Assembly: GCA_050250895.1 (NCBI GenBank)
Contig: JBFWNU010000001.1
Span: 1,902,884-1,966,883 of the forward strand
Direction: 5' to 3'
Length of the DNA stretch: 64,000 nucleotides
Source: Vulcanimicrobiota bacterium
GTDB lineage: Bacteria; Vulcanimicrobiota; Xenobia; Xenobiales; JADMJV01
The notes beneath the pieces were generated by a model. The model saw nothing but the letters and a program-made list of their open reading frames with translations. It did not search any database and was not told the origin of the DNA. A program made the position numbers and the translations under genes. Shown here one piece after another: positions 15,892-33,400 of the stretch (position 1 is the first letter of the stretch; the number at the start of each line of letters is the position of its first letter).

Positions 15892-15898
15892 GTCGCTA

Positions 15899-15926
15899 GC
15901 CCCCGGTTTCGACCGGGGGCCTTTTC
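15899..15926 (+). terminator. intrinsic terminator
   Basis: GCCCCCGGT-TTCG-ACCGGGGGC hairpin followed by CTTTTC just after the SPFH stop codon. Confidence 0.75.
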
Positions 15927-16262
15927 TCGTCTCTCGTTCGGGCTAAAGGCTATCCGCCGAGGCTGGCGCTGAGAATAGCGCGCTCGATGTCGGACATTTC
16001 AGGCTCGTGGTCACGCACCGTTTCGATGAGCTTTTTATAGGGGCTGCGTTCGAGCATAGGTCTATGCTATCAGGCCTGACCGGACCTGTGGGGGCGATCA
16101 TGTAAAAGCTTTGTTACAAGTTGTTTCCGTCGTGTCTTTTTCTGACAAAAACGAAGGTGGCGGGAGAAAGCCCGGCGCCGGGGCGAACGCGAGTTTAACA
16201 TCTTTCTCGACATGTGAGCCGGACCTTGCGATACGCTCTCAAGCGTCAAGGCAGGTGCTCTA

Positions 16263-17579: not shown

Positions 17580-17603
17580 CGCTACGGGCTTGACGGGACC
17601 GGC

Positions 17604-18425
17604 TTAGAAGGTGTTGCCGTCCTCGATGCGGCCGCTCTCCCAGCCCCTCTTGAACCACTGCTTGCGCTGTTCGGAGCTGCCGTGGGTGAACGAGTCGGGC
17701 ACGACATAGCCTCGGGCCTGCTGCTGCAGGCGGTCGTCGCCCACGGCCGCGGCCGCTCCCAGGGCTTCGTCCAGGTCGCCCGGCTCGAGCACATTGAGGC
17801 GCTGCTGGGCGTGATGGGCCCACACGCCGGCATAGAAGTCGGCCTGTAGTTCGACCTTCACCTGTAAAGCGTTGGCTTCTTTCTTTGCCAGCCGTTGCTG
17901 GCGGGCGTGAACCTCGCTGAGCACTCCGAATTGGTTTTGCACGTGATGGCCGACTTCGTGGGCGATGACATAGGCGCGGGCGAAGTCGCCGGGCGCTCCG
18001 AAGCGTTGCTCGAGTTCTTGAAAGAAGCTCAGATCGAGATAGACCTTTTCGTCCCCCGGGCAATAGAACGGCCCCATGGCCGCCTGGGCAAAGCCGCAAG
18101 CGCTGCTGATCTCGCCGTCAAACAGCACCAGCTTGGGCTCGATATAGGTCATCCCTCGCTCGGCAAAGAGTTGATGCCAGACCTCTTCGGTGTCGGCCAG
18201 CACGACTGAGGCGAACTCATCCGAGCCGTCGGGCGCCACGACCGCCGGGCGTGAGGGGGGGCCAGAACTCGAGAGGGCGTGCAGAATCTCGAAGGGGTCG
18301 ACGCCGGCCAGCAAAGCGACGACGACCACCACGACCGTGACCAGTCCGCCCGCGCGCACCGGCCCACCGCCTCCCCCTCGTAGATCTTCTACGTTGTCGC
18401 TGCCTCGCCGGCCCTGCCATCGCAT
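17604..18425 (-). CDS. ypfJ: neutral zinc metallopeptidase (YpfJ family)
   Basis: MRWQGRRGSDNVED; GPFYCPGD; AHEVGHHVQ; ELQAD; FTHGSSEQR. Confidence 0.9.
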   Translation of the reverse strand: MRWQGRRGSDNVEDLRGGGGGPVRAGGLVTVVVVVVALLAGVDPFEILHALSSSGPPSRPAVVAPDGSDEFASVVLADTEEVWHQLFAERGMTYIEPKLVLFDGEISSACGFAQAAMGPFYCPGDEKVYLDLSFFQELEQRFGAPGDFARAYVIAHEVGHHVQNQFGVLSEVHARQQRLAKKEANALQVKVELQADFYAGVWAHHAQQRLNVLEPGDLDEALGAAAAVGDDRLQQQARGYVVPDSFTHGSSEQRKQWFKRGWESGRIEDGNTF

Positions 18426-18432
18426 GGTCCAG

Positions 18433-21129
18433 CTATTCTTGGACCGGTTTCTGCGGCCCTGCAGTCAGTCCCAGCGCCGCCAACACAGCGGCCGGGCTGT
18501 CGGCACCGTGCTTGTGGACCACCTCCGCCACCTGGTCCAGGCGAGCGTAGTCTTCGGGTCCCAGGTCGCGGGCAGTGTAGATGACCACCGGCACCCGGGG
18601 GTCAAGGCGACGCAGTCCCTCTAAGACCTGAAAGCCTTCCATGTCGGGCAGGCCGAGGTCAAGCACGACTGCCGAAGGCAGCTGTTGGGCGAAAAAGTCG
18701 AGCGCCTCCTGACCTGTGGCAACCGAGATGAACCTGGCATTCATCCCGTCTAGCTCTTGCTCGAGCAGGCCACGGGTCCCGACGTCGTCCTCCACCACCA
18801 GCACCGTCCCCTCTTGAGCCAGGTCTTGCAGCACGGCCTGAAAACGGGAGGCATCCACCGGCTTGGTCAACCAGGCGGCGATGCCCAGATCGTAGCCCAC
18901 CGGCGAATTGTCGAGCACGCTCGTGATGATGACTGGAATCGAGCTGGTCTGGGGGTTGGCCCGAATGCGTTTGAGCACTTCCCAGCCGCCCATTCCGGGC
19001 ATGACGATATCCAGCAGCACCGCGCTCGGACGCAGCGAGGCCAGGCGGGCCAGACCTTCTTCGCCGCTGCGGGCCAAATGCACGCGGTAGCCGGCCTCGC
19101 TCAACTCGCTGTACATCACCTCGAGAAAGCTGGCCTGATCGTCGATGACCAGCACGTCCGGGCCCGCGCCTTTGGGCTTGAGGGCTTCGAGACCCCGCTC
19201 CTGGTCGCCCACCAATACCGTGTCGGGAAAGATCAGCGAGAACGTCGAGCCCACGCCGAGTTCGCTCTCGACCTGCATTCGCCCACCCATCAGAGTGGCC
19301 AGTTTGTCGACGATGGCCAGGCCCAGTCCGGCCCCCTCGCGCTCGCGGGTATGCGAGGCATCGACCTGATGGAACGGCTCGAAGATGCGCTTGAGCTGTT
19401 CTGGCCCGATACCCAGGCCCTGGTCTTGCACGGCCAGCACGACCTCGCGTCCGCGCAGGCCGAAAGTGGACAGGATGTTACCGCTGTCGGAGTATTTGAT
19501 GGCGTTGGTGAGCAGATTGATCAACACCTGGCGTAGCCGATCGGGGTCGAGGTAGAGGACCATGGGTTCTTGCTCGACCCGAAACTCCATGGTCATTCCC
19601 TTTTCCTCGGCCTGGGGAGTCAGGGTGTCACGCAATTCTTCGGCCAGGGCCCGACAGTCAACCTCAGAGGGGCTCACCACCATGCGACCGGCTTCGATGC
19701 GCTCGAAGTCGAGGATGTCGTTGACCAGGGTCAGCAGTTGCCGTCCGCTCTGATGAATCAGCTGTAGATTCTTGTATTGCCGCTCGGGCAGCTTGTCCTG
19801 GGTTTTGCGCAACATCAGTTTCGAGAAGCCGATGATGGCGTTGAGCGGGGTGCGCAGCTCGTGGGACATGTTAGCCAGAAATTGGCCCTTGATACGATAG
19901 GCTCTTTCTAGTTCGTCGTTCTGGTCTTCGAGTCGGGCCAGACTCTGGCCGAGCTTGTGGCGCGAGTCGACCAGGCGATCGATCATACGATTGGTGTCCC
20001 CGGCCAACTGGCCCACCTCGTCCTTGAAGAAAACGGGCACCCGGTCGCCGGCGTCCACCTCGCCCCGCACCACGATCTTGCGGACCGTATCGGCGATTCG
20101 AGCCAGGGGGTTGGCCACGGTGTGGCTCATCAGCAGGGCCGAGCCCAGTCCCCAGGCGACCGCCACCAGGGCAGCCAGGGCAATGGCCACTTGAGACGTC
20201 CTGGTGGCGCCGGCCGCCAGCACCACCACCCCAACCACCTGGTCACCCTGAAGGCGAGTGCGTAGCACCGCTCGCTGACTGCGATTGGTCGAAGCGCCCT
20301 CCGAGACCGATTGCGTGAACCACCGGGCCAGGGCCGGCCTTTCGCGCAGCAACACCGTGAGTTTGTCGCCCTGGACCAAGCCACCCTGTGGGGTGGCCAG
20401 GAAAGGATAGACGCCCTCCGCGTCCTGCCACGATTCGGGTGAGTCGAGGTGAGCCAGAACCAGTTCGGCGGTGCGTGCCGATTCGTTCATTTCCTGGGCG
20501 CTGCGCAAGATGGCCTGGATTCCGATGAAATAGCAGCAGGGCGAGAGAGCCAGACACAGACCCAGCACCACCATCTTGCTGCGGATCGATACCCAGACGC
20601 CGGGTAACTCGAGGCCGCGCTTCTCGGCCGGAATCGAGATTCGTCCGGCGATAGGAGCAAACAGAAAGAGATTGAGCGGAAAACCCACGGCAAAGCCGCC
20701 GAAACCCACCGTGGCCGCGAATAACAGCCCCGGAATCAGAGCGTCGGGTCCTAGCCTGGCCGGCGTATCGGCCAGGCTAAGGATGACCGCCAGGGCGGCA
20801 TACATCACGAAGAACAAGCATGAGTAAAAAATGGTGTAGTAGAGCGGAAAATTGTAGATGGCGCGAGCGGCGCTGCTGGCCTGTTCATCGTCCCAGGTCT
20901 CGTCGGGACGGCGGCTCAGCCAGCGGTCGAGCGGCGCCACCATGCGCACCCGCAGCAGCAGCCAAACGGCCGTGCGGGGCAGATAGAGCCAGAACAGGAT
21001 GCGGTAGAAGGCATGAGCGGCCTCAGCCTCAAGGCTGAAGACATAGCGAAAGCAGACAGCCAGGAGCAGGTTGAAGACCACGTCGAGACAAGCCATCACC
21101 AGCGTGGTGCGGAGCGTGTAAGACCCCAT
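18433..21129 (-). CDS. hybrid sensor histidine kinase (HAMP, HisKA, HATPase, two receiver domains)
   Basis: FLANMSHELRTPLN; NLLTNAIKY; DQGLGI; GAGLGL; two LLD..P receiver motifs. Confidence 0.9.
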   Translation of the reverse strand: MGSYTLRTTLVMACLDVVFNLLLAVCFRYVFSLEAEAAHAFYRILFWLYLPRTAVWLLLRVRMVAPLDRWLSRRPDETWDDEQASSAARAIYNFPLYYTIFYSCLFFVMYAALAVILSLADTPARLGPDALIPGLLFAATVGFGGFAVGFPLNLFLFAPIAGRISIPAEKRGLELPGVWVSIRSKMVVLGLCLALSPCCYFIGIQAILRSAQEMNESARTAELVLAHLDSPESWQDAEGVYPFLATPQGGLVQGDKLTVLLRERPALARWFTQSVSEGASTNRSQRAVLRTRLQGDQVVGVVVLAAGATRTSQVAIALAALVAVAWGLGSALLMSHTVANPLARIADTVRKIVVRGEVDAGDRVPVFFKDEVGQLAGDTNRMIDRLVDSRHKLGQSLARLEDQNDELERAYRIKGQFLANMSHELRTPLNAIIGFSKLMLRKTQDKLPERQYKNLQLIHQSGRQLLTLVNDILDFERIEAGRMVVSPSEVDCRALAEELRDTLTPQAEEKGMTMEFRVEQEPMVLYLDPDRLRQVLINLLTNAIKYSDSGNILSTFGLRGREVVLAVQDQGLGIGPEQLKRIFEPFHQVDASHTREREGAGLGLAIVDKLATLMGGRMQVESELGVGSTFSLIFPDTVLVGDQERGLEALKPKGAGPDVLVIDDQASFLEVMYSELSEAGYRVHLARSGEEGLARLASLRPSAVLLDIVMPGMGGWEVLKRIRANPQTSSIPVIITSVLDNSPVGYDLGIAAWLTKPVDASRFQAVLQDLAQEGTVLVVEDDVGTRGLLEQELDGMNARFISVATGQEALDFFAQQLPSAVVLDLGLPDMEGFQVLEGLRRLDPRVPVVIYTARDLGPEDYARLDQVAEVVHKHGADSPAAVLAALGLTAGPQKPVQE

Positions 21130-21165
21130 CAGGAAAGGTTCCCAGGGGTTCGGGCTTTGGCCTGC

Positions 21166-22098
21166 CTAGAAGAACACGGACAGCAGCGACGCTAGCGCCA
21201 CGGTTACGGCCGCTCCGGCTAGAAGCAGGTTCATTTTCGAATCGCTGGGGGCGACCGCAAGTTCGGGGGCGGCGAGTCGTGAAGTCTCGGGAGCAGGTTC
21301 TCCGGTGACCTGGCTGTAGGCTTCCGCCAGGGCGCGTCGCATGGCCCGGCCGCTGGCGAAACGCCTGGCCAGTCGACCTTCGGTGGCGCGGGCGACCAAT
21401 TGGCTGACCGCCTCGGGGCAGTCGGGCAGCACCGTCTCGGGGCGGCAAGTCTTGAGAGGCCTGGGAGTCTCGCCGGTAATCAATTCGTAGAGGGTGGCAC
21501 CCAGAGCATAGAGATCCGAGCGCGGTTCGGGATGGCCCTGTAATTGCTCGAGGGGAGCATAGGCCAGGGTGCCGACCATGGTCTTGGTGGCCGGTCCGGC
21601 CATGTCCCGAGCCATGCCGAAATCGACCAGAACCACCGTGCCATCGGGTCGCAGCACGATGTTGTGGGGCTTGACATCGCGATGCACCACCGGAACCGGG
21701 CGGTTATGGAGGTAGCACAAGACATCGCAGACTCCCAGGCAATGGGCCAGAGCCTGACCCAGCGGCAGTGGTCCCTGCTCGAGAAGCGAAGCCAGACTCT
21801 GGCCCTGGATGTAGTCCATGGCCAGATAGTCGGTCCCGTCCTGCTCGAAGAAGTCCGAGATATCGGGAATGCCAGGGTGGCGCAACTCGAGCAGTGTAGC
21901 CGCCTCGCGAGCGAACCGTCCGCGCATGTCGTGATCGGCCCCGGGGTTGATCTGCTTGATGGCCACCGCCCCGCCGGTTTGCTGATCGCGAGCCAGATAG
22001 ACGGATCCCATCCCTCCGCTACCCAGCATCGATTCGACCAGGTAGCGGTCATGCAGCAGGGTCCCGGGCTTGCATTGGTGTTCCGAAGTCGGGGTCAC
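21166..22098 (-). CDS. Ser/Thr protein kinase with C-terminal membrane anchor
   Basis: GSGGMG, VAIK, HRDVKPHN, DFG, YAPLEQ. Confidence 0.9.
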   Translation of the reverse strand: MTPTSEHQCKPGTLLHDRYLVESMLGSGGMGSVYLARDQQTGGAVAIKQINPGADHDMRGRFAREAATLLELRHPGIPDISDFFEQDGTDYLAMDYIQGQSLASLLEQGPLPLGQALAHCLGVCDVLCYLHNRPVPVVHRDVKPHNIVLRPDGTVVLVDFGMARDMAGPATKTMVGTLAYAPLEQLQGHPEPRSDLYALGATLYELITGETPRPLKTCRPETVLPDCPEAVSQLVARATEGRLARRFASGRAMRRALAEAYSQVTGEPAPETSRLAAPELAVAPSDSKMNLLLAGAAVTVALASLLSVFF

Positions 22099-22135
22099 GC
22101 TCTAAAGTATAGCCCAGCTTTTTGAAGTGTGCAGG

Positions 22136-22849
22136 CTAACAAGTCCCGCAGCAACCGTAGACGAAGCCTCCCAACCCTTCGCACGTGCCACCCGCCGTTC
22201 CCGCGGCCAGCCCGCAACAAGCCACCCCCACGGCGGTTTGGTGGGCGTTGGCGCGAGCGGTAGAGCAGGTCGTGTTGACCTCGATGGGAGCCGAACTGAG
22301 ATCGATGCAATCTGGATTGAAGGCAGCCGGCAGGGCATTAGCGAGCGGGTCGGTAGCGCAGCTACCGCTCGAATCGGTTGGACGGCAGCGCCAGATGATA
22401 CACGAGCAGTTGCTGGCGCACTGACTGGGGTTGGTGCAAAAACAATCCGAGCAGGCCGCGGTGCAGGCGGCGGCGCTGATGCAGGCCGACGACGCGTGGG
22501 CGGGCGTAGGCAAAGCCAGGCTGGTGAGGGCAAGTGCGGCTGCCGCTGTGCCCGAGCCGGCCAGGAACGCGCGGCGAGTCTGGTTGCCCTCGACAAGGCC
22601 CGCGGCTTGCAGCCGAACCAGGGCGGCATCAAGCACCTCTTCACCGCCAACCTCTTCACCAACCTGGCTGCGCGGAGTATGTCCGTCACAGCGCGCGAGG
22701 ATCTGGCTCAATAAGGGAGTCAAGGCATGGGCTTGACGGCTGGAGGGGTCGTAGGCCAGGGCTTCGTCGCCAATCGCGGTGATGGTCAGTCCACTCTTGG
22801 TGGAGGGCATTCTATTTTCAGTCATCTGGACCCGGTTCGTTTCAAGCAA
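22136..22849 (-). CDS. PqqD/RRE-like domain fused to a twin-arginine-like signal and a Cys-rich domain
   Basis: IGDEALAYDP..AHALT..ILARCDG..LQAAGLV (PqqD-like); TRRAFL..PTPAHA; 18 Cys in the last ~118 aa. Alternative ATG start at 22825. Confidence 0.7.
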   Translation of the reverse strand: MLETNRVQMTENRMPSTKSGLTITAIGDEALAYDPSSRQAHALTPLLSQILARCDGHTPRSQVGEEVGGEEVLDAALVRLQAAGLVEGNQTRRAFLAGSGTAAAALALTSLALPTPAHASSACISAAACTAACSDCFCTNPSQCASNCSCIIWRCRPTDSSGSCATDPLANALPAAFNPDCIDLSSAPIEVNTTCSTARANAHQTAVGVACCGLAAGTAGGTCEGLGGFVYGCCGTC

Positions 22850-22938
22850 ACTCCTTCCTTCTGTTGGCTTTGGCCTGCCTCTTTGGTAGATGAGGGTCAG
22901 GACTTGGGTGGAAGTCTAGTTGTTCGAAAGTGCGGTCG

Positions 22939-23466
22939 CTAGCGAGTCGCCTGGCCGCTATCAACCACTCGAGCTACCGCCGCCACATCGACCGCCGTGG
23001 GTAGATGCAAGAAAACGACCCCGGAGGCCAGCTGATGATGCAGCGCCAGGTAATAGATCTGATTGCAGAGATAGGTGCCGGCGCTGTACGAGAGCACGGT
23101 AGCCAGACCCCCTCGGCGTAGCGCCTCGAGCCAGCCGCGAGTATCGGCTGTCGACCAATAGGCGACCGGGCCGCCGACAACCACTGGTTCATCGATCTGC
23201 ATCCGCCCGTTGGCGTCGGGAATGTCAAAATCGTTGAGATTGACGGCCACACGCTCGACTCGGACGACGCTCGAGCCTCGCGCTTCGCCCAGGCACACCA
23301 GTAGCTCCGGGTTGAGTTCGCGGGCCTTCTTCTCGAGCCTTGGAAAGGCTGTTTGGCTATCGACCGGCAGCAGCAGGGTGGGGTGCTTCACTTGAGCCAG
23401 GACTTCGGCTGAGGGGTTGCGCGAAGCGCCAGCGAACGGTTCGAAGCCCGTAACCAGAATGCTCAT
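22939..23466 (-). CDS. pcp: pyroglutamyl-peptidase I
   Basis: ILVTGFEPF..NPS; ERVAVN; SAGTYLCN; FLHLP. Confidence 0.9.
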   Translation of the reverse strand: MSILVTGFEPFAGASRNPSAEVLAQVKHPTLLLPVDSQTAFPRLEKKARELNPELLVCLGEARGSSVVRVERVAVNLNDFDIPDANGRMQIDEPVVVGGPVAYWSTADTRGWLEALRRGGLATVLSYSAGTYLCNQIYYLALHHQLASGVVFLHLPTAVDVAAVARVVDSGQATR

Positions 23467-23638
23467 CGAGCTATCTTAGGGGCAGATATCGAAACTCTTG
23501 CCATGTTACAAATGTAAACGTGACATTGCTGACATGTTAACCTCGAGACACAGGACTGTGGGTAACCCGGTGGATAAACTCACAGACGTCAGGGCTGGTA
23601 TGTCTTTGAACCCTGAAGCCAGGGATTTTTGGGGGGTG

Positions 23639-23667
23639 TTGACATCCCTCCGGCCATGCAGTATCTT
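23639..23667 (+). promoter_or_regulatory. sigma70-type promoter
   Basis: TTGACA (23639-23644), 17-bp spacer, TATCTT (23662-23667). Confidence 0.7.
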
Positions 23668-23672
23668 GCAGT

Positions 23673-24826
23673 CACTCCAGTCACGGAGTCGCCCCGCCAA
23701 GCGAGAGAGGCGGAGGGGACTAGCACCCCCGACAGGTAACGGTCGAAGGGCTAGAGGTTAGACGCAAACCTTCGTGGTCTACCGCCCAAGCGATGCACCA
23801 GCAAGCGTCTCCAGAGTCTTCACTGGAAACGAGAAGACAGGGCTTGACGGCCAGTTTGGAACCCGCGAGGGGAAAGGGCGACCGGGGTAACTCGGAGCAG
23901 CCGCCAGAGAACGTCGAACAAGAGGCTCGGTTGGTGACCGGGTAGCGGAACGCTCGAGGCCGCGCCACACCACAGTGGCAAAAGAGAGCGAGGCGCACCA
24001 GCCTCGAGGTGTCCGGCCCCATCCGGTAATGTGGGGAGTGTCGTGACGGGCACAAGCGGAGCTGCGACGGTTCGAGCGTAAGCGAGAACTCAAGCCGCGA
24101 CGGTCGGCAGGCCGTGAACAAAGAGCGCAGGGGTGCATCCACCCAAAGGGATGCTGAAGTCACTCTCTAGTAGGAGTGATAGGGCCCACAGCCCGCGTAG
24201 GAACCGCGAGGGGAATGGCTGGCCGAGGAGACTCGAGCAGCGCCCACGAGGGGCACGATGTGGGGAGCCTGAGCGCAGGATGGCACTCGGGCAGCGGACC
24301 GAAGGTGGCCGCGCGAAGACGAGAGTCTTCGGGAAAGACTTCGGGGTTGCGATCTGACCAGAGAATCGCCCAGAGCCGACTGGGAAAACGGGAGGCGAGG
24401 CATCGCCTGAAAGCTCACGGTGGTGGAGCCGGGAGTGGCAACTCGGGCCAGACGCGAAGGCGTCGAACGGCGGGGGCGGAACTGCTAGAAACCGCGACGC
24501 GAGAGCGTGAAAAATGGAGCAGGGGTAGCATGCAGACCAGAGCTATGCGCAGCGTTTCGTCTGAAGGCATTCGAAACGAGGCCCGGCGCGCTAGACGGAC
24601 CCGCGAGGGGTAAAGATCCTGGCAACAGGAAGCCGGCTTAAGCGGACCACGGGAGCTTGGTGCAGGTGGGAAGGCGGCCAAGCAACGGTGACATTCGGTC
24701 TACCGTGACGCCCCAGCGTCGAATGCGAATGTTAGGGTCTTCGCCCCGAAAAAGCGAAGTCGGTTTGCCGGACTGGGAAGAAGGCAAGCTAACAAAGGAC
24801 GCGTTCTTCGGAGCGCGTCTTTTTCT
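23673..24826 (+). ncRNA. candidate large structured non-coding RNA (~1.15 kb), possibly GOLLD-like
   Basis: No credible ORF; bounded by promoter and terminator; purine-rich + strand; many tetraloop hairpins; long-range 5'/3' complementarity. Ends approximate. Confidence 0.65.
24797..24826 (+). terminator. intrinsic terminator
   Basis: GGACGCGTTC-TTCG-GAGCGCGTCT stem with a cUUCGg loop, followed by TTTTCTATTT. Confidence 0.85.
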
Positions 24827-24863
24827 ATTTGCCTGGACGAGCTTTTGCTGCTAGCATTCGATC

Positions 24864-25151
24864 ATGGGCTTTGATGAACGGCTAGAGAGACTTGAGCAAC
24901 GAGTCGAGCGTGATGATCAGCATTTGGAGCGGGTGATAGTCACGCAGCGCGAGATTGTCCAAAAGGCCTTTGACCAGGTGAACCTGGCTTTACTTGAGCA
25001 GCAGATAGGCCTCAAGGCCTTCGCGGACAATACTCGAGACAGCCTGCGTGAATTGATTGAGTTGATGAAGGGCCAACGCGCCGAGAATGATCGCGAATTG
25101 GAAGCCATCAAGGCTCGTCTTGACCGGCTGGAGAGCCCTCCCGCGGCCTGA
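24864..25151 (+). CDS. small coiled-coil hypothetical protein
   Basis: ERLERLEQRVE..LEAIKARLDRLE heptad pattern. Confidence 0.6.
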   Translation: MGFDERLERLEQRVERDDQHLERVIVTQREIVQKAFDQVNLALLEQQIGLKAFADNTRDSLRELIELMKGQRAENDRELEAIKARLDRLESPPAA

Positions 25152-25154
25152 AGA

Positions 25155-28100
25155 CTACTCGCGGCGAGCGACCTGGATGTCGTTGACCCAGATCTCTTCC
25201 TCGTTGACCTCGAGATTGCCCTCCGACTCGTCCTCCATCGACTTTTTCAGGATCATGGTGTCGATGATGTCTTCTACCTTTTTCTCGAGAGGGCGGCCAT
25301 CCTTGGGGTCGAGCGCCTCGAGCATCTTCTGGAATTCGTCGAGCTTCAGGTTGTTGGTCTCGGCCTTGTTCAGGACGTTCTTGAGGGCCTTGAGACAGGC
25401 TCGGAGCGGGTCGACGGGCTGGCCTGACTGCAGACCCACCACCAGCACCTGGCGTCCGAAAGGACCGGCCTGGTGATAGAGTTCGAGGGCCGGCTTTTGA
25501 TGATATTCCCAGTTATAGCTGGCCTCTGGATAAGGTGGGTGGGCTTCCAGAGCTTTCTTCAGCCGGGTCACCTCGCTGCGGGCCTGCTCGAGATTGGCGC
25601 CGTCGCCCAGCAGATCGGCGGCGGCCGGATAGAACAGCCCCAACTCTTTGAGCAGGTCGAGGCGCTGGTCGAGGTTGGTGTTTGCGACCGGGTTCAAAAC
25701 GACCTTGACAGCCTTCGGGTCCTTCTTCTGGCTGAGTAGCTCGAGAAAGTAGAGGCGCGCCGCCTCGCAATCAGGCTTGAGCAGCTGGTTCTTGTAAAGG
25801 TCGAAGCTCGGCTTGAGGGTGTACTCCCACTGATACGAGTCCTCTGGATAGACCCGGGCGCCCTCGGCGGCCTGCTGGTATTGCGAGAGGTGCTCGCGCG
25901 CCACGTTCAAGGTCGTGCCCTGGCCCAGATCGGCTGCGAGCAGGTCGTACATCGGGCCGGCGAACTTGCCGCTCTGTAGCTCGCGGAAGACCTCGATGCG
26001 CTGATTCAGGTCAAGCCCCGGCACGTCGGGAAGCACGTGTTTGACCAGGGCGGGGCTCTGCTTGGCGGCAAGCAGTTCCAGGAAGAATTGCCGGGCCGGT
26101 TCAAGCTCGGGCTCGAGCAACTCGGAATAGAGGCCATAAACCGGCTTGAGGGTGTATTCCCAGTGATAAGGGTCCTCTGGATAGACCCGCGCCTTCTCGC
26201 CCGCGGTGGCAAACTGGGCCGTTCGCTGGCGGGCCTGCTCGAGGTCGTGGCCAGTCTTCATGTCCGCCAGCACCAGGTCATACATCTGGGTCGGGAACTT
26301 CTGTTTCTGGAACTCACCGAAAAGGTCGATCCGCTGGCTCAGGTCCAATCCCGCCACTTCGGGCAGGACATGCTTTACGCTGGTGGCGTCCTTTTTTTCG
26401 CGTAGAAGCTGCAAGAATAGCTGGCGGGCTGGGGCTCGCTCGTCGGCCAGCAATTCGTCTTTATAGAGTTGGTAGGGCTTTTCCAGGGTGTACTGCCAGT
26501 GATAGGGGTCTTCGGGGTAGACACGGGACCCTTCGCCGGCGGCGAAGAACTCGGCCGCTCGCTCTTTGGCCACCTCGAGCGTGGCGCCGGCTTCCAGCTC
26601 GGCCTTGACCAGCTCGTAAGATGGGTTGGGGAATTTACTCTGCTGGCACTCTCGAAACAGCTCGACCCGCTGGCTCAGCCTCAGACCCCTGACCTCGGGC
26701 AGTACGTGCCCGACGGCGGTGGCGTCCTTCTTCTCGCGCAGCAACTGCAAGAACAGCTCGCGTGCCGGCTCGCGAGCGGCATCGAGAAGTTCTCTCTGGT
26801 AAAACTGGTAGGGCTTCTCCAAGGTGTACTGCCAGTGGTAGGGGTCTTCGGGATAGACGCGCGCTTTGTCGCCAGCGGCGAACAGCTCGTCGACTCTTTG
26901 ACGGGCCTGGTCGAGGCTTTGACCGGCACCCATCTCGGCCGCGATCAAGTCGAATTTCTGGGTGGCAAACTTGCCTTCGCGCAATTCACGATAGAGCGTG
27001 ACCCGTCGTTGCAGGTCTAGACCGTTCACCTCTGGCAACAGATGCTTGACCGTTAAGGCGTCTTGCTGGTGGGACAGCATCTCGAGGAAGAGCTGCCTGG
27101 CCGGTTCACGGTCGGGCTTGAGCAATTCGGCCTGGTAGAAGTTGTAGGGCTTCTCGAGGGTGTATTGCCAATGGTAGGAGTCCTCGGAATAGACTCGTGC
27201 TTTCTCGGCCGCCGCCGCGTACTCGAGGGTTCGCTCGCGGGCCTGGTCGAGGCTGCGCCCCTGGGCCAGTTCCCCGCTGGCCAGCGCATAGAGGCGGTCT
27301 GGCAGGGGGTGTTGGCGCAAGGCTCTCATCAACTCGGTCCGCTGCTCGAGGTTGGTCGAGCCGGCTGGTTCAAAGAGCCTGGTGACGTCGACGGGTCGAC
27401 CGCCCTGGAGTTGCTCGAGATAGAGCGCGCGAGCCGGGGTTCGCTCGGGGGACGACAAGGTGGTTTTGACCAGGGTCAGGGCCGGCAGGGCCACTCGGTT
27501 TTCGAAATCGTAGGAGCCTTTGGCTCGGTCCAGGGCAGAGTTCAAGCCGGCTACCGCCCTGGTCGCCTCGGCGTGGGAGTTGCCGCTGGCCACCAGGTCC
27601 ATATGCAAATCGTAGAGCAGCTCGGGCTTGAAGCCTTTGCTGGCGGTGCTCAGGGCTTGCAGCCGCTCGGCCAGACTGCCCTGGCCCCGGTCGAGGCACT
27701 CCCTGTACTCGGACAGTTCGACGAGTTGGGTGGTGCTGGTGACCGCGGTCTTGAGATCGGCAGTCGCGAAGAGTTCGCGCACCTTGTCCGGCTGAGTGGG
27801 GACGGCCTGCACACAGGCCGCCACCGGGTCGTTGGCAAAGGCGGCGTAGAGGGCGGCCGGGCTCTGGCCGCCCAGCTTCGTGAGGCTGGCAAACCCCTCG
27901 GGGTCATCATCGAGCTGCTTAAGAGCGTTGCGCGCTTTGGTCAGCAGGTCGAGGTTGGCGTCGGGTTGATAGAGGCCAATCTGCTTCAAGGCCAGGGCCG
28001 CGTTCTTGGGCTGGTCCCCCAACAGGCGCAGGCGGGTCGCGATCTGCTCGGGGCTTAGCTGGTCGTGCATCGCCTCGATGACCCGGCGGTGGGGTGAACT

Positions 28101-28796
28101 CAAAGGATAGAGACGGGCCGGTTCGATATCACCCAGGTCAGCCCCCAAAGCTTCCACCAGCAAGGCGGCACCTTCGGCCGGGCTGGCTTGCAGGGCGACT
28201 TTGAAGGCGCTCAGATCGCGGGTCTTGACCGGCTTGTCGTGCTCGAGGCGGGCCAGGGGATAACCTTCTTGGAAGGCCACGATGGGGCCGTTGTCCTCCA
28301 GTTTGAGAAAGGCGTCATACAGGTTCGTCGTCTTGCCGCTCACCGGATCGAGCAGGGCGTGTCCGACCATGGCCGCGGCCTGGCTGGGGAGGGGCCGTGG
28401 GGTGCTGCCGGTCAGCGCTTGCTCTAGAACGGCCAGCTCGTCGAGGTTGCCCAGCCGACATTTCTGGCCGTCAATCTCGACCCTCAGACGGGAGCTGCCC
28501 TCGTTGAGGGCCTCGGCGGCTTGCTCTGGAGCCAGGGGCTGGTAGGCGTCGGTCCAGGGCCAGTGAAAGCGCTTGTGGTGGAAGAAGTGGCAGTCGAGCT
28601 TGGACAACTCGTCGGCCACGACCGGTCCGACCGGCCCGGTGGCGGCTGCCACCACGGCCTGGGTGACCGGGGCCGGAACGACAGGTTGCTCAGGCCGAGC
28701 CGTCAGCTCGACCTGGTCGGGAGAACTTTCGGTTTTCTTGCTCTCTGACGGGGCGCGGTAGACCGTCGGAAAGGAGGTCAGAGGCTTTATCCGCAT
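25155..28796 (-). CDS. large helical repeat protein (112-aa repeat), paralog A
   Basis: Five full copies plus one partial copy of RVYPEDPYHWQYTLEKPY..LL..PARQLFL; ATG at 28796 aligns with the start of paralog B. Confidence 0.8.
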   Translation of the reverse strand: MRIKPLTSFPTVYRAPSESKKTESSPDQVELTARPEQPVVPAPVTQAVVAAATGPVGPVVADELSKLDCHFFHHKRFHWPWTDAYQPLAPEQAAEALNEGSSRLRVEIDGQKCRLGNLDELAVLEQALTGSTPRPLPSQAAAMVGHALLDPVSGKTTNLYDAFLKLEDNGPIVAFQEGYPLARLEHDKPVKTRDLSAFKVALQASPAEGAALLVEALGADLGDIEPARLYPLSSPHRRVIEAMHDQLSPEQIATRLRLLGDQPKNAALALKQIGLYQPDANLDLLTKARNALKQLDDDPEGFASLTKLGGQSPAALYAAFANDPVAACVQAVPTQPDKVRELFATADLKTAVTSTTQLVELSEYRECLDRGQGSLAERLQALSTASKGFKPELLYDLHMDLVASGNSHAEATRAVAGLNSALDRAKGSYDFENRVALPALTLVKTTLSSPERTPARALYLEQLQGGRPVDVTRLFEPAGSTNLEQRTELMRALRQHPLPDRLYALASGELAQGRSLDQARERTLEYAAAAEKARVYSEDSYHWQYTLEKPYNFYQAELLKPDREPARQLFLEMLSHQQDALTVKHLLPEVNGLDLQRRVTLYRELREGKFATQKFDLIAAEMGAGQSLDQARQRVDELFAAGDKARVYPEDPYHWQYTLEKPYQFYQRELLDAAREPARELFLQLLREKKDATAVGHVLPEVRGLRLSQRVELFRECQQSKFPNPSYELVKAELEAGATLEVAKERAAEFFAAGEGSRVYPEDPYHWQYTLEKPYQLYKDELLADERAPARQLFLQLLREKKDATSVKHVLPEVAGLDLSQRIDLFGEFQKQKFPTQMYDLVLADMKTGHDLEQARQRTAQFATAGEKARVYPEDPYHWEYTLKPVYGLYSELLEPELEPARQFFLELLAAKQSPALVKHVLPDVPGLDLNQRIEVFRELQSGKFAGPMYDLLAADLGQGTTLNVAREHLSQYQQAAEGARVYPEDSYQWEYTLKPSFDLYKNQLLKPDCEAARLYFLELLSQKKDPKAVKVVLNPVANTNLDQRLDLLKELGLFYPAAADLLGDGANLEQARSEVTRLKKALEAHPPYPEASYNWEYHQKPALELYHQAGPFGRQVLVVGLQSGQPVDPLRACLKALKNVLNKAETNNLKLDEFQKMLEALDPKDGRPLEKKVEDIIDTMILKKSMEDESEGNLEVNEEEIWVNDIQVARRE

Positions 28797-28872
28797 GCTG
28801 AGTCGAGAATATTTCAGCACCCGGAAAGAATGATGAAACGCGGCTCGACAACTACTCTTACCGCTACTTCCT

Positions 28873-29466
28873 TCAGTGAGTCGTGGGGGTGGGAGTGACT
28901 TCGATGGCGTTGGTGGCGTCAAAAGCCGGCTCGCTGACGGTGAAGTAGAGGGCCAGGACGTAGCCTACCAGGCGATTCGCCTCGGGGCCGGCCTCGACGG
29001 TGATAGTGCCCTGCTTGGCCAGGGCCGGGTCCATCGCACTGTAGAGTTCTCCGACGCGTTGCCAACGGAGCACATCGCCCACCACCAGGTCGCCATTACT
29101 CTCGACTCGCATGGGTCCGGGCTGGCCGTCGAGTTCGACCTCGCCTTGAGCGGTGAGCTTGACGCTCTGTCTTTGCCCGTCAGCCTCCATACGACCGTCA
29201 GGAAAGACCTGGAAATGCTTCTCCTGGGCCACCGACTTGATGGTGATGTTACCCTGGTCATCGCCGCTGATCCGAACGGTGTGCTCGGCCTCGCCTTCGG
29301 GACCGGCCAGAGTGAGGGTGAAAGGGGCGATGGTCAGATGCCCTTCGGCGGCCAGCGGGGTGGCGACCGCGGTTGCCATAGGAGTGGGGGTCGCCGTCGG
29401 TTGCGAGCAACCAACTAGAAGGGTGATGGCCAGCGCCACCGGCAAGAAGCTTCGAAGAGTGTTCAC
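28873..29466 (-). CDS. putative lipoprotein
   Basis: GTG start overlapping the upstream stop; lipobox LLVGC. Confidence 0.65.
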   Translation of the reverse strand: MNTLRSFLPVALAITLLVGCSQPTATPTPMATAVATPLAAEGHLTIAPFTLTLAGPEGEAEHTVRISGDDQGNITIKSVAQEKHFQVFPDGRMEADGQRQSVKLTAQGEVELDGQPGPMRVESNGDLVVGDVLRWQRVGELYSAMDPALAKQGTITVEAGPEANRLVGYVLALYFTVSEPAFDATNAIEVTPTPTTH

Positions 29467-30467
29467 GGCGTGTCTCTTTCGGCTGGAATCGGGCTCTCCT
29501 TCCCGGCTTGGAACTCGACCAACAGCGGGCGATGGTCCGAGAGCTTGACCGACGCGGTCCAGCATCCGGTCACGGTCAGGTCGGGCGAAAGCCAGGCATA
29601 GTCGATGCGCCAAAGCGGCAGGTGGGACTTGTAGGTCAGGCCCCAACCTGTCCCGTGCGTGAAAGCATCCTGGGCCAGCGAGCGCAGGCGCCAGTAGTGG
29701 TGGGAGCGCGGCGGCGTGTTGAAATCCCCCATCAAGAGGGTGGGCACGGGGTCATCCAGTAGCGTGAGTAGGGCGTCGATCTGGCGACGGCGGGTATCGG
29801 CGGTGAGTTGCAGACGCTGGGTCGCGCTGGCTTGTCCTTTGAGCTTGCCCTCGGGATCGCCCGTCATCAGGTGAACGTCGAGGACCCGCAGAGGAGAACC
29901 GTTGACTTCGACCGTGGCTTCGAGGGCCTGGCTCAAACCATCAAGAGAATGGGACTTCTGCTCGAGCACCGGCAAGCGCGTGAAGATGGCCAACTCGTCG
30001 CGGATGCCACCCCGGACCAACTGGTATCCGACCAGGCGCTCGGCCAGGATAGGCACGGGGTCGGGGTGGCCCGGAGCAATGGGCGTGCGAGCCTCTTGCA
30101 GGGCGATGATGTCGGGACTGTGCTTGAGCAGATAGTCGGCCAGGCGGGCCGGTCCGCCCAGGCCGGCCTGGATGTTGTAGCTAATGGCTCGTAAGCTGCC
30201 CGGGCGGGCCGGAGCCGACAACTGCAGGCCAGAGGCCAGTAGCAGAGGCAGCACCAGGGCGGAGGCGATGAGAGCCGGTCGCACTTTGAGCCACCAGGCC
30301 AGACCCGCCAGCAGAGGCAGAGGGGCCAGCCAAACCAGCGGGGGTGCATAGCAGGGCAACACCGTCACCCAGTGTCTCTCGGGCACCAGGCGGAAGTAGA
30401 CGGGAATCAAGCATAACCCGCCCGCGTAGCCAAGCAGCAAGGCGGTAGCCGCCTTTTGCCAGGTCAT
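29463..30467 (-). CDS. endonuclease/exonuclease/phosphatase family membrane protein
   Basis: SYNI, DIIALQE, MGDFN, RIDY, SDHRP. Confidence 0.9.
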   Translation of the reverse strand: MTWQKAATALLLGYAGGLCLIPVYFRLVPERHWVTVLPCYAPPLVWLAPLPLLAGLAWWLKVRPALIASALVLPLLLASGLQLSAPARPGSLRAISYNIQAGLGGPARLADYLLKHSPDIIALQEARTPIAPGHPDPVPILAERLVGYQLVRGGIRDELAIFTRLPVLEQKSHSLDGLSQALEATVEVNGSPLRVLDVHLMTGDPEGKLKGQASATQRLQLTADTRRRQIDALLTLLDDPVPTLLMGDFNTPPRSHHYWRLRSLAQDAFTHGTGWGLTYKSHLPLWRIDYAWLSPDLTVTGCWTASVKLSDHRPLLVEFQAGKESPIPAERDTP

Positions 30468-33400
30468 TCGTCGCGCCGGGCCACCGGAATGTCGTTAATC
30501 ACGATCTCGTCTTCGTTCAACTCGAGGCTGCCTCCCGAATCGACCTCTAGCGACTTCTTCAAGATGAGAGCCCCGAGCGTGGTCTTGATGCGTTCATCGA
30601 AGTCCCCTGCAGAGGCCGCGGCTAGCCCGGCCTGCAAGTCTTCTGGCTGGATGCCGACGGCGGCAGCCTGGCGGAGATCGTCTTTGAGTCCGGGCACGAG
30701 CCGTTGTAGCGAGTTCAAGGATTGTCCCTGGGCCAATCCGGCCAGCAAGACTTCTCGTCCGAGCGGCGGACTCGACTGGTAGAGGTCAAGCCCGTTGTGG
30801 ATGTGGCGAGAGGTGTTCTGCGGTGGAGCGCAGGATTGCAGCGCGTCCTTGAGGCGGGCTGCTTCGCTGCGAGCCTGCTCGAGAGTGGACCCCTCTTGCA
30901 GCCAGGCGAAGGCTGCTTCGGAGTACTCACCCAACTGGGCCAGCAGAGCCACTCGCTGTTCCAGGGTAGTGTTGGGCACCTCTTTCAAGGCCGCTTTGAT
31001 ATCGAGGGGTTGCTGCTTGTCGGCCAATAGTTTCAAGAAGAGTTTGCGGGCCGGCTCGCTACTGGGGGCGAGCAGGTGCTGGCTGTAGAATTCGTAGGGC
31101 TCGCGCACGGTGAGACGCCAGTGATCCGAGTCGGCCGGATACTTGCGACCCGATTCGGCCGCCCGGGCGAAGTCGGCGGTCATCGTCCTGGCTCGCTCGG
31201 GGGGCTGGCCGGACCGGACGGCTTGAGCGAAGAGGTCGTACATTTGGGAGCCGTGGGGCAGTCCGCCGAACTCTCGCAAGATGGACACCCGTTGGCCGAG
31301 ATCAAGGCCCGGTAGATCGGCCAGCGCGTGGTCGGCCTGGAGAGGGTCTTTCTTGTTGGCCAGCAACTCCAGAAAATACTCGCGGACCAGAGCCTTGTCA
31401 GGGGTCAGCAGATGGTCGCTGTAGTATTCCACCGCCGCCTTGAGGGTCAGGCGCCAGTGGTCTGAGTCGCTGGGATAGCGGCGACCGGTCTGGCCGGCCA
31501 CCGAAATGGCCCGAGCCAACTCTTTGGCCTCTTCGAGGCTGGCGCCCTGGTCAAGTCCGGCTTTGACCAGGTCATACATCGCAATGGGATAGTGGGTAGC
31601 CTGTAGCTCAGCAAACAGGTCGATGCGCGCCGGCAGGTCCAGGCCTCCGGCGGCCGGCAGAACGTGGGCCACCGAGTTGGCCTCTTTCTTGTCGGCCAGT
31701 AGTTTCAGAAAGAGCTGACGGGCCGGTTCGCGAGCGGGCGTCAGCAGTTCGTCGCGATAGAACTCATAAGCCGGATTAGCCGTCAGGCGCCAGTGGTCGG
31801 AGTCGCCCTGGTAGCGGCGTCCCTTTTCGGCCGCCTCGGCGAAGTCGCTGACCAGCCGCCGAGCCTGGTCGAGGTCTGAGCCAGCCGCGACGGCCGTGGT
31901 CAACAGGTCGTAGTAGTGACTTCCAAATTTGGCCTGATCGAGCTGCTCAAAGAGTTCCACTCTTCGTTCTAACGACAGACCCCTCACCTCGGGCAAGACG
32001 TGGGTCACGGCGGTAGGATCCTTTTTGTTGGCCAGCATCCGCAGGAAGAGTTCGCGCGCCGGCTGGCGGTCGGGCGTGAGCAAGTTCTCTTGATAGAACT
32101 CGCAGGCGGGTCGCAAGGTGAGTCGCCAATGGTCCGAGTCGCTTTGATAGCGTCGGCCCTCTTCACCTGCCACCGAGAACGCGCGGGTCAGCTCTTTGGC
32201 CTGCTCGAGAGTGGCCCCTTTGGCCATCGCCGCCGTGGTCAGGTCATACATCGGGTTGGCATACTTGTGTTGCTGCAACTCACCGAAGAGTTGAATGCGG
32301 GCGTCAAGGTCGAGTCCGGCCACCTCTGGCAGCACGTGACTCACCGACAGCGCGTCTTTCTTGTCGGCCAACAGCTGCAAGAAGAGCTTGCGAGCCGACT
32401 CTCGGCTTGGAGCCAGCAGTTCATCCCGATAAAATTGGTGGGCCTGGCTCACGGTGAGCCGCCAGTGATCGGATTGCCCCTGATAGCGGCGACCGCTTTC
32501 GGCCGCGCTGGCGAATTCAGAGGTCCTGGCCTCGGCCTGCTCGAGACTGGCCCCCGTTTTGAACGCAGCCACCACGAGCTCATACATTGGGCCAGGGAAC
32601 GGGCTGCGCTGGAGTCGTTCCAGGACGCCGGTCCGTTGCTCCAGGCTCAAGCCCTGGACTGGCTCGAGGATGTCCGCCACCGAGGTCGCCTCTTTCTTGT
32701 CAGCCAGAAGCTTCAGAAAGAGTACTCTGGCGGGTTCGTTGCCAGGCTTGAGCAAGTTCTTCTGGTAGAATTCGTAGGCGTCTCGCAAGGTAAGGCGCCA
32801 ATGGTCCGAGTCACTCTGATATCGTCGAGCCTTTTCCGCTGCCCGGGCAAATTCCAGGGTGCGGTCCGCCGCCTGCTGGGGGGTTCGTCCGCCAGCCACC
32901 TCATCTAGTGTCAGTCTCAGCCAGTGGCCGGCGAACGCTTTATTGGTCAGCTTCTCGGCCAGCTCGACGCGTTCGGCCAGAGTTGTGCCCGCGATCGGCT
33001 CGAAGGTGTCGGTGATGTAGCTGGCGTCGCGCCCGGCCGCCATCTGTTCGAGATAGAAGCTGCGAGCCGGAGCCTTCTCGGGCTCCATCAGGTAGTCACG
33101 CACGAAGCCCCTGACTTTGTTGGTGTTGGGGCTCTTCTCGGCTTTGAGCATCCTCTCCAGGGTAGCTTTCGCCTGGTCGTGACTGTTGCCGGCCTCGATG
33201 AGCTGTGTGTTGAGCTCGTACAGATCCTCGGGGGCCCGGCCAAATCTTACCGTTCTCAGGACTTCGAGCCGCTCAGCCAGGTTGCCGCCGCCCCCGTCGA
33301 GGCAATGGCTCAGCTCGGAGAGTTCGGCCAGAGAGGCGACGCCTTGCACCGCCGCGTTGAGTTCACTGGTGGCGAACAGCTCGTTGACTCGAGCCTGTTC

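Follow-up and report, generated by a model that had tools for sequence, protein, structure and literature searches.

What fills the longest gap between the genes of this chromosomal region? The stretch analysed here, hereafter the window, comprises 64,000 nt of contig JBFWNU010000001.1 (positions 1,902,884 to 1,966,883, forward strand; assembly GCA_050250895.1) from a Vulcanimicrobiota bacterium of the class Xenobia. A gap of 1688 nt (23467-25154) is the longest in it without an open reading frame (ORF) of at least 150 aa, the runner-up measuring 625 nt. This bears out a first-pass annotation, made from the letters alone, which had pointed to the largest gap in a gene-dense region and had proposed there a structured non-coding RNA (ncRNA) of about 1.15 kb with its own promoter and terminator. 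The proposal itself is also supported, as the RNA measures about 1155 nt and shows strong covariation. We hold, with a probability of roughly 85%, that 23674-24828 on the + strand is the gene of a large, compactly folded and uncatalogued family of ncRNA built from tandem modules, for which we infer an architectural role. The RNA is organized as a 5′ leader (two hairpins and a pseudoknot), four diverged modules in tandem, a 3′ domain and a terminator. Each module begins with an entry helix and a GNRA hairpin, followed by a three-way junction that GGGU/GCCC closes and that carries two hairpins; a GNRA-capped hairpin comes after most of the modules. Module 4 is the nearly invariant core, and the six copies in the organism's own genome represent two ancient types.

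A transcription unit with defined ends

The limits of the RNA are set by the following features, all on the + strand:
23639-23667, +: sigma-70-type promoter (TTGACA at 23639-23644, 17 nt, TATCTT at 23662-23667; 10/12 matches)
23674-24828, +: whole RNA, about 1155 nt, delimited by promoter and terminator and by the limits of homology between paralogues
24794-24828, +: intrinsic terminator (13-bp stem at 24794-24823, UUCG loop, U-run)

Transcription is predicted to start at about 23674 (±4). Both the TTGACA-17-TATCTT promoter and the cUUCGg terminator with its U-tract had been read from the window by the first-pass annotation, and both recur in the relatives of the RNA. Promoter-like sites number 2 in 23000-25300, against 0.3 expected, and the pattern TTGAC-N17-20-TAnnnT occupies an equal aligned position in 17 of the 20 homologous units that we aligned; of the other three, two have a -10 element outside the search expression and one is truncated by a contig end. 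The terminator stem is 93% paired in the homologues, with double changes (both partners of a pair altered) at 6 pairs. The shared promoter position and the compensated terminator thus mark these elements as features of the locus beyond chance. Homology between paralogues sets in at 23634-23666 and ends at 24826-24836, coinciding with promoter and terminator. The region also stands out by composition, its + strand being G/A-rich and T-poor as had been remarked: G, A, C and U make up 36.5, 24.2, 26.3 and 13.0% of 23674-24828 (window: G 31.7%, T 19.3%), with an AT skew of +0.29 to +0.41 and a GC skew of about +0.2.

No conserved reading frame

The RNA region has no conserved reading frame. One could suppose that it holds one or more protein-coding genes, since the window copy does contain frames of 145 aa (+ strand) and 147 aa (- strand), its longest; we practically dismiss this reading. 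Variable sites are spread over the three codon positions without bias, both among the four close copies of the own genome (30/30/35 and 39/35/33 for the two frames) and among all 20 units (114/122/117 and 131/130/134). Among the close copies, 12 of 13 indels in the - strand frame and 17 of 18 in the + strand frame are not multiples of three, in-frame stops interrupt both frames in most other copies, and no frame of the RNA region matches a Pfam family. The short ORFs here had been called non-protein-like, and every one of these measures agrees.

A fold maintained by compensatory changes

The fold of the RNA is supported by compensatory changes, the 5′ pseudoknot included. The structure of the whole molecule was predicted with RNAalifold on the reference columns of the 20-unit alignment, and its pairs were counted on the same alignment. 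The prediction comprises 267 pairs in about 50 helices, which are 89.6% paired over the 20 homologues; 164 of the 267 pairs have double changes (668 cells), compared with 66-84 pairs (122-156 cells) and 36-40% pairing in slid controls. The minimum free energy is -494.2 kcal/mol for the + strand and -438.0 kcal/mol for the - strand, and frequent G-U pairs, which would be A-C on the opposite strand, fix the + strand as the RNA strand.

The 5′ domain was analysed on a separate alignment of the 20 units (A2) and contains:
23674-23678 with 23685-23689, +: hairpin P1, loop AGUCAC
23694-23698 with 23709-23713, +: hairpin P2, loop AAGCGAGAGA
23715-23718 with 23727-23730, +: hairpin P3, whose loop (23720-23725) pairs with 23749-23754 to form the pseudoknot
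23731-23735 with 23740-23744, +: GNRA hairpin inside the pseudoknot

P1 and P2 are 98-99% paired, each with double changes at 3 of 5 pairs, and in the pseudoknot helix all 6 pairs have them, 93% of the cells being paired. Altogether, the five helices of this domain (24 pairs) are 96% paired with 16/24 double-change pairs. None of 500 shuffles reaches the observed values, and when the 3′ partners are slid by 1-3 columns pairing falls to 31-50%, with at most 5 double-change pairs.

Further downstream, outside the modules proper, the following elements were recognized:
23862-23895, +: two GNRA-capped hairpins 3′ of module 1 (CCC-GCGA-GGG and CCGGG-GUAA-CUCGG), whose stems covary
24610-24793, +: 3′ domain, with the next three helices
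24650-24663 with 24674-24688, +: helix, 99% paired, 3 double-change pairs
24691-24696 with 24727-24732, +: helix, 87% paired, 6 double-change pairs
24706-24711 with 24716-24721, +: helix, 90% paired, 3 double-change pairs

At six places the tetraloops remain GNRA despite letter changes in 15-20 of the 20 homologues; the loop is kept in 19/20 at 23865, 23887 and 24206, and in 12/20 at 24603. All eight of the short, mostly GNRA-capped hairpins that had been listed before can be read at their places and several of them covary, among them CCGGG-GTAA-CTCGG (100% paired in the homologues, 4 double-change pairs) and ACGC-GAGA-GCGT. GACGC-GAAG-GCGTC, on the other hand, does not have a GNRA loop and is kept in only 3 of the 20. 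Covariation among homologues, which had been suggested as a check, is found in the 5′ domain, in the whole RNA and in the module described next.

A tandem array of junction modules

Four diverged copies of a single junction module (about 120 nt) are strung in tandem along the RNA, a plan that goes beyond what the first-pass annotation had noticed. Modules were searched for with R1, a covariance model built from the conserved core, which places four of them in the RNA of the window:
23722-23867, +: module 1 (R1 29 bits, expectation value (E) 4.5e-6), diverged, with a large insertion in hairpin A
24090-24209, +: module 2 (R1 27 bits, E 1.6e-5)
24135-24141 with 24148-24154, +: hairpin A of module 2 (GCATCC/GGATGC), 7 double-change pairs among homologues
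24159-24165 with 24174-24180, +: hairpin B of module 2 (TCACTC/GAGTGA), 6 double-change pairs among homologues
24304-24423, +: module 3 (R1 14.8 bits, E 0.045), the weakest copy
24482-24606, +: module 4, the conserved core (R1 match 24487-24606, 141.6 bits)
24482-24486 with 24518-24522, +: entry helix of module 4
24497-24500 with 24505-24508, +: GNRA hairpin of module 4
24523-24526 with 24581-24584, +: junction stem of module 4
24528-24531 with 24545-24548, +: hairpin A of module 4, loop including CAGACCAGAG
24553-24559 with 24572-24578, +: hairpin B of module 4, loop UCUGAAGGCAUU

The core, as folded by RNAalifold on an alignment of 20 units (A3), consists of a GNRA hairpin followed by a three-way junction that is closed by GGGU/GCCC and carries hairpins A and B; 7 of its 24 pairs have double changes. 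In a larger set of 77 modules (71 distinct), 92.7% of the cells are paired and 21 of the 24 pairs are changed on both sides. A further 135 modules from metagenome contigs (122 distinct) give 93.8% and 20/24, values reached by 0 of 500 shuffles, with 31-40% pairing in slid controls. Directly 5′ of the junction lies an additional helix, the entry helix CUGYYR/YRRCAG. All 6 of its pairs are formed in 40 of 69 modules (5.5 expected), and many compensating variants of it occur among the modules. The words CAGGGGU, ACC in loop A and GGCC are common to all modules. Module 3, read by eye, retains GGGGUU and hairpin A with its ACCAGAG loop, and the same GGAACC-GNRA hairpin trails module 2 (24204-24211) and module 4 (24600-24609). 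A kissing contact of loop A (CAGA) with loop B (UCUG) in the same module was considered and rejected, the observed variants not compensating one another.

The modules have not been preserved equally. In family f1 (families of the class are labelled f1 to f5), the loops are retained in module 4 only, modules 1-3 having drifted; module 4 is up to 93% identical between genera, compared with 67-82% for the remaining RNA, and about 100 nt of it are almost invariant across genera, unpaired positions included. The sister family f2 possesses an RNA of about 1.26 kb with five modules, a period of about 250 nt and a TTGACA-17-TATATT promoter (locus L059, 1395-2693, - strand). Its repeats are near-regular and succeed one another in the order hairpin with loop GAAGCGAnAGAA, entry hairpin, junction module and GNRA hairpin, and the same form was found in G022:C94, G020:C59, G016:C175 and G024:C337. 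Some metagenome contigs of about 1.35 kb, among the matches listed, carry five or six modules.

Contigs that end where the predicted RNA ends

Is the predicted unit transcribed? A motif scan of metagenomes returned at least 120 stretches, of which 80 were analysed, 70 of these being shorter than 2.3 kb; the counts that follow are all among the matches listed. Out of 51 contigs containing the 5′ landmark (23689), 38 begin 1-19 nt before it, which corresponds to 23670-23688. No contig has its start 20-262 nt before the landmark, and the remaining 13 extend at least 263 nt upstream, with a promoter directly upstream of the RNA. The 38 contigs beginning at the RNA start all differ in sequence, and 11 of them are bounded at both ends, with lengths of 1273-1668 nt and a 3′ end 145-237 nt past the 3′ landmark. 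Similarly, 19 of 30 contigs with the 3′ landmark end 125-237 nt past it (162 nt in the window). To judge from these positions, the pile-up of contig ends at both ends of the RNA is probably the pattern of assembled transcripts and not of DNA assemblies. Relatives of the RNA, 85-99% alike, are also present among RNA-library contigs from two studies, and one such contig of 1082 nt starts at 23684. Nearly the same point recurs in the metagenome contigs, 22 of the 38 beginning 4-5 nt before the landmark, at 23684-23685 in the loop of P1; this could reflect either processing of the 5′ end or the assembly itself.

In four runs, 22600-23600 and 24820-25900 on either side of the RNA are almost uncovered, which is uninformative, as the contigs belong to relatives whose flanks differ and the runs had been selected through the RNA. 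Cover depths in these runs are not expression levels, and the run shares are all below 0.5, so that no habitat is named.

The contigs that span the RNA end to end also bear on the idea of a catalytic RNA or self-cleaving array with module 4 as its active centre. Such an activity could explain why some 100 nt of this module are nearly invariant, including unpaired positions, and why a three-way junction should have conserved strands. The intact contigs of 1273-1668 nt argue against self-cleavage, however, no ribozyme family was matched even at E up to 10, and no substrate or intron-like flanking context was found; we regard catalysis as very unlikely.

An old multi-copy family of one class

The RNA is multi-copy and restricted to a single class of an uncultured phylum, both facts beyond the first-pass annotation. 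The own genome (9.5 Mb, 17 contigs) holds six diverged copies: four are 82-100% identical over their full length, and two more, partial by BLAST, are nearly full-length by profile (profile positions 28-1138). Both the same genus and genus g3 have full-length relatives, 997-1622 nt long. In a tree, the 20 units fall into two deep types, A with four of the own copies and B with the other two (support for the split 97 in the Shimodaira-Hasegawa-like approximate likelihood ratio test, SH-aLRT). Both types are present in the own genome as well as in genus g3, indicating that they are paralogues older than the genera. Two own copies lying 5 kb apart are nearly identical (branch lengths 0.02 and 0.03) and represent a recent duplicate. 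In locus L008 (about 1344-2913; the same place as L042, about 1604-3677) two of the RNA genes lie in head-to-head orientation, their promoters being back to back.

Modules matching R1 were detected in 20 of the 44 genomes of the class, namely in 13/15 of family f1, 5/5 of f2 and 1/1 of f5, compared with 0/19 of f3 (in which the genomes without a module measure 1.9-4.7 Mb) and 0/3 of f4. Across the phylum they occur in 19 of 151 sampled genomes, all belonging to f1, f2 and f5. Since the genomes were sampled and some are incomplete, the modules are to be called not found, rather than absent, in f3, f4 and the rest of the phylum. The contigs with the core motif are labelled Vulcanimicrobiota, Candidatus Eremiobacteraeota and Candidatus Xenobia. 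A few bear other labels (L025, L030, L035, L040 and L045 uncultured Burkholderiales; L043 and L046 Selenomonadaceae), which are probably wrong, their closest relatives being Vulcanimicrobiota/Xenobia. The assembly contains one 16S ribosomal RNA (rRNA) gene (G000:C1:2631049-2632564) next to six genes for the RNA, a ratio that is uncertain, as rRNA operons are often collapsed.

Do the neighbouring genes say anything about the RNA? In the window it is flanked by:
22939-23466, -: pyroglutamyl peptidase gene (Pfam), upstream flank
24864-25151, +: ORF of 95 aa without Pfam family, beginning 36 nt past the terminator
25155-28922, -: ORF of 1255 aa without Pfam family, convergent

Also encoded in the flanks are a kinase and a histidine kinase, besides ORFs that match no Pfam family. 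Neither the 95-aa nor the 1255-aa ORF was found again beside the other five copies, and in 23 longer loci the recurrent "proteins" proved to be spurious frames within the RNA itself, apart from a single orthologous neighbour shared by three loci. This bears directly on the possibility that the RNA is a long cis-regulatory leader, an array of aptamers controlling the ORF at 24864-25151. The ORF lies on the same strand close behind the terminator, and tandem aptamer-like modules are known from tandem riboswitches; nevertheless, the neighbours of the six copies are unrelated, and several of them lie on the opposite strand, no flanking protein recurs save at the one orthologous locus, the contigs stop at the terminator, and the ORF itself belongs to no Pfam family. 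We consider such a leader highly improbable.

The number of copies, and the nearly identical pair 5 kb apart, might equally suggest a non-autonomous mobile or selfish repeat. Yet the copies differ by 12-26% and more while their base pairs are kept by compensatory change, and their edges are a promoter and a terminator instead of inverted repeats. The core motif was found in 0 viral contigs, and blastn of the RNA gave no match in 50,697 phage records or in plasmid records; types A and B, moreover, are older than the genera. A mobile repeat is in our judgement barely credible. No transfer RNA (tRNA) gene was found by ARAGORN in 15000-33000, and together with the viral and phage searches and the Pfam families of the flanks this agrees with the previous remark that no tRNA, phage gene or nuclease ORF adjoins the RNA.

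DnaA-box-like sites upstream of the promoter

Two short sites lie just outside the RNA:
23557-23565 and 23569-23577, -: DnaA-box-like 9-mers, 82 and 70 nt upstream of the -35 element

The two are 12 nt apart, and each has one mismatch to the DnaA-box consensus. The box position is occupied in 10 of 18 units, the other copies being without boxes. Upstream DNA of the RNA genes has 18 matches in 3.6 kb, about 96-fold the density of the 9.5-Mb genome (496 matches, 0.052 per kb), and the region upstream of the RNA is one of roughly six genomic sites where two boxes fall inside 40 nt. As a lead, the sites at 23557-23577 are candidate regulator sites for DnaA or for a protein of like specificity. Other DnaA-box-like clusters are located at G000:C1:1144284-1144444, C1:1154728-1154748 and C1:1077243-1077257; the first of them, with five box-like words within 160 nt, may be the replication origin.

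What the RNA may do

Having several gene copies next to one 16S gene, and assembling readily from RNA libraries, the RNA seems suited to a stoichiometric rather than a regulatory role, and the repeated junctions, each with a conserved GNRA hairpin, suggest packing of module against module. We tentatively propose, at somewhat less than even odds, that it is an abundant RNA with a stoichiometric function as architecture or scaffold, offering repeated sites to a partner. The repeated modules and conserved GNRA loops would pack together into a pseudo-repetitive particle, this particle would present several equivalent sites to the partner, and the boxes in front of the promoter may couple its expression to DnaA. 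A more specific picture is doubtful: a single chain with four to six modules and GNRA loops might form a pseudo-symmetric particle, a one-chain counterpart of the ROOL and GOLLD cages, made in bulk from more genes than 16S rRNA and switched by DnaA with the replication cycle.

Only the half of the scaffold proposal that concerns a platform for a partner is challenged by the possibility of an RNA-only particle, which would assemble itself, perhaps as a multimer, in the manner of ROOL and GOLLD into a closed cage or ring through tetraloop and kissing contacts, with no protein partner. The large number of conserved GNRA loops in equivalent positions behind the modules, the repetition of the modules and the strong conservation of the junction's unpaired nucleotides would all fit, and multimers of ROOL, GOLLD and OLE have been seen by cryo-electron microscopy (cryo-EM), according to the excerpted text of the preprint 10.1101/2024.12.08.627333. 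No receptor motif or self-complementary loop was identified in our RNA, however, and it has no homology to ROOL or GOLLD; we think this unlikely.

Repeated modules could alternatively serve as a sponge that titrates a regulatory protein or small RNA, as CsrB and RsmZ do. A tandem module with invariant unpaired nucleotides, encoded by several gene copies and represented by contigs in RNA libraries, is what such a sponge might look like, but the loops of f1 are kept in module 4 only while modules 1-3 have drifted, a poor fit with equivalent binding sites. GGA, moreover, occurs in hairpin loops 5 times in 32 loops (5.6 expected) and 34 times in the whole RNA (37.5 in shuffles), and Shine-Dalgarno-like words are not enriched (GGAGG 2 against 4.6, GGAG 14 against 13.1). 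A sponge is decidedly unlikely on these grounds, and its CsrA-type and Shine-Dalgarno variants were rejected outright, the motif counts being at or below expectation. For pairing between the conserved loops and some other cellular RNA no sign was found either: complements of the loops occurred in chance-like numbers or only antisense to the copies themselves.

Several points weigh against the reading of the locus as a gene for a folded, modular and architectural RNA. The whole-RNA pair counts are flattered, because the structure was derived from the alignment on which it was scored, and the paralogues and kin in the alignments are not independent of one another. Four long-range helices of the RNAalifold structure (23756-59/24645-48, 23946-48/24583-85, 24182-85/24368-71 and 24375-82/24520-26) have no double change and are unproven, and the last of them clashes with the junction stem of R1. 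Both module alignments were fitted to R1 and are biased towards it, the match of module 3 is weak when taken alone (E 0.045), and the entry helix crosses the outer GCG/CGC helix of R1, so that either one of these helices is mistaken or the two make up a pseudoknot. The six own copies share no conserved neighbour gene, their neighbours being unrelated and several on the other strand. Regarding transcription, the library type of the short metagenome contigs is unconfirmed, while the RNA-library contigs are relatives, none from the source organism, and attest presence only, not strand, level or ends. Finally, the analysis identifies no partner, and the functional part of the reading is inference only.

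Comparison with known RNA families

To our knowledge very few bacterial ncRNAs exceed 600 nt, and rRNA, RNase P, group II introns, OLE, GOLLD and ROOL each opened a field. The RNA described here is longer than all of these except rRNA and has strong comparative support. A genome may carry as many as six diverged copies of it, in a phylum that lacks cultured model organisms. It gives access to the biology of Xenobia, presents cryo-EM and chemical probing with a target of clear bounds, and is a test case for the growth of large RNAs by module duplication. Should the DnaA boxes be real, it would also link a giant RNA to replication control.

Does it belong to a catalogued family? A covariance search, which had been recommended as a check, matched none: cmscan of the whole window against 4227 Rfam families, a set that we take to include GOLLD, returned 0 matches at the gathering score, and at E up to 10 the region 23300-25000 gave only Twister-P5 and mir-1471, at chance level. 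The weak Twister-P5 match (23408-23451; 20.4 bits, cut-off 37.6, E 0.21) falls within the ORF of the pyroglutamyl peptidase, outside the RNA, and is taken as chance. The loci of nine relatives, scanned at E up to 5, yielded eight scattered matches, none recurrent, the best being MIR2670 outside the RNA. That match, to a plant microRNA (43 bits against a cut-off of 117), concerns a palindromic G/C-rich repeat downstream of the f2 RNA (L059 1198-1322), probably a repeat element. Likewise, the literature at abstract level and the text of two 2026 preprints contained no report of the RNA, an earlier mention in supplements being possible. The missing Rfam match indicates that the RNA is not GOLLD, ROOL, OLE or HEARO, and of the alternatives "GOLLD-like or new large RNA" left by the first-pass annotation the second stands and the first falls. 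No covariance model or ARAGORN match pointed to group I or II introns, RNase P or transfer-messenger RNA (tmRNA), which were rejected too.

The likenesses to known systems are nonetheless instructive. Like GOLLD, this is a bacterial ncRNA of unusual size, with many helices, a pseudoknot, conserved GNRA loops and no assigned function. GOLLD is often found beside tRNA genes and in phage or prophage DNA, whereas the present RNA is longer (1.0-1.6 kb), chromosomal, encoded in six copies per genome, composed of tandem modules and without a link to tRNA or phages; GOLLD was rejected on the missing model match, the lack of tRNA genes in 15000-33000, the 0 viral contigs and the lack of a phage match by blastn. 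With HEARO and other OMEGA-type RNAs it shares a large structured RNA and several copies per genome. HEARO adjoins the ORF of an IscB nuclease in a mobile element; it was rejected, since there is no Rfam match and none of the six copies is flanked by such a nuclease ORF.

OLE measures about 600 nt, belongs to Bacillota and has the partner genes oapA/B/C. The RNA described here is twice as long, has tandem modules and lacks both an Rfam match and a conserved neighbour gene. OLE was accordingly rejected on the missing model match and on relatives labelled Vulcanimicrobiota/Ca. Xenobia, no search having been made for oap genes. What the two have in common is that each is a large conserved RNA restricted to one bacterial lineage, and excerpted literature describes OLE as abundant, highly conserved and thought to act in a ribonucleoprotein.

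The repeats of CsrB and RsmZ are GGA hairpins of about 20 nt, while here a multi-helix junction of about 120 nt is repeated, without enrichment of GGA loops. All the same, one transcript made of many small structured repeats is common to both, and as a multivalent platform CsrB and RsmZ are a possible working analogue. In its possession of its own promoter and terminator, the absence of a conserved frame and the presence of compensated base pairs, the locus is like structured ncRNA genes in general. Genes for rRNA are comparable as multi-copy genes of a stable structured RNA with strong promoter, conserved upstream sites and terminator; the RNA has no similarity to rRNA models, and the assembly has one 16S gene against six genes here.

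ROOL, finally, is a large ornate RNA, and like GOLLD and OLE it forms RNA-only multimers as visualized by cryo-EM (10.1101/2024.12.08.627333, excerpted text). It was rejected as an identity, its covariance model matching neither the window nor the nine relatives' loci; there is no match in sequence or structure, and the phylum is another. The repeated modules of the present RNA could give a comparable repetitive particle within one chain, repetition lying within the chain here and between chains in ROOL. We rate the RNA as a new class of large bacterial RNA, set apart by multi-copy genes and by a building plan, the tandem repetition of one multi-helix module, that is undescribed for the known giant RNAs.

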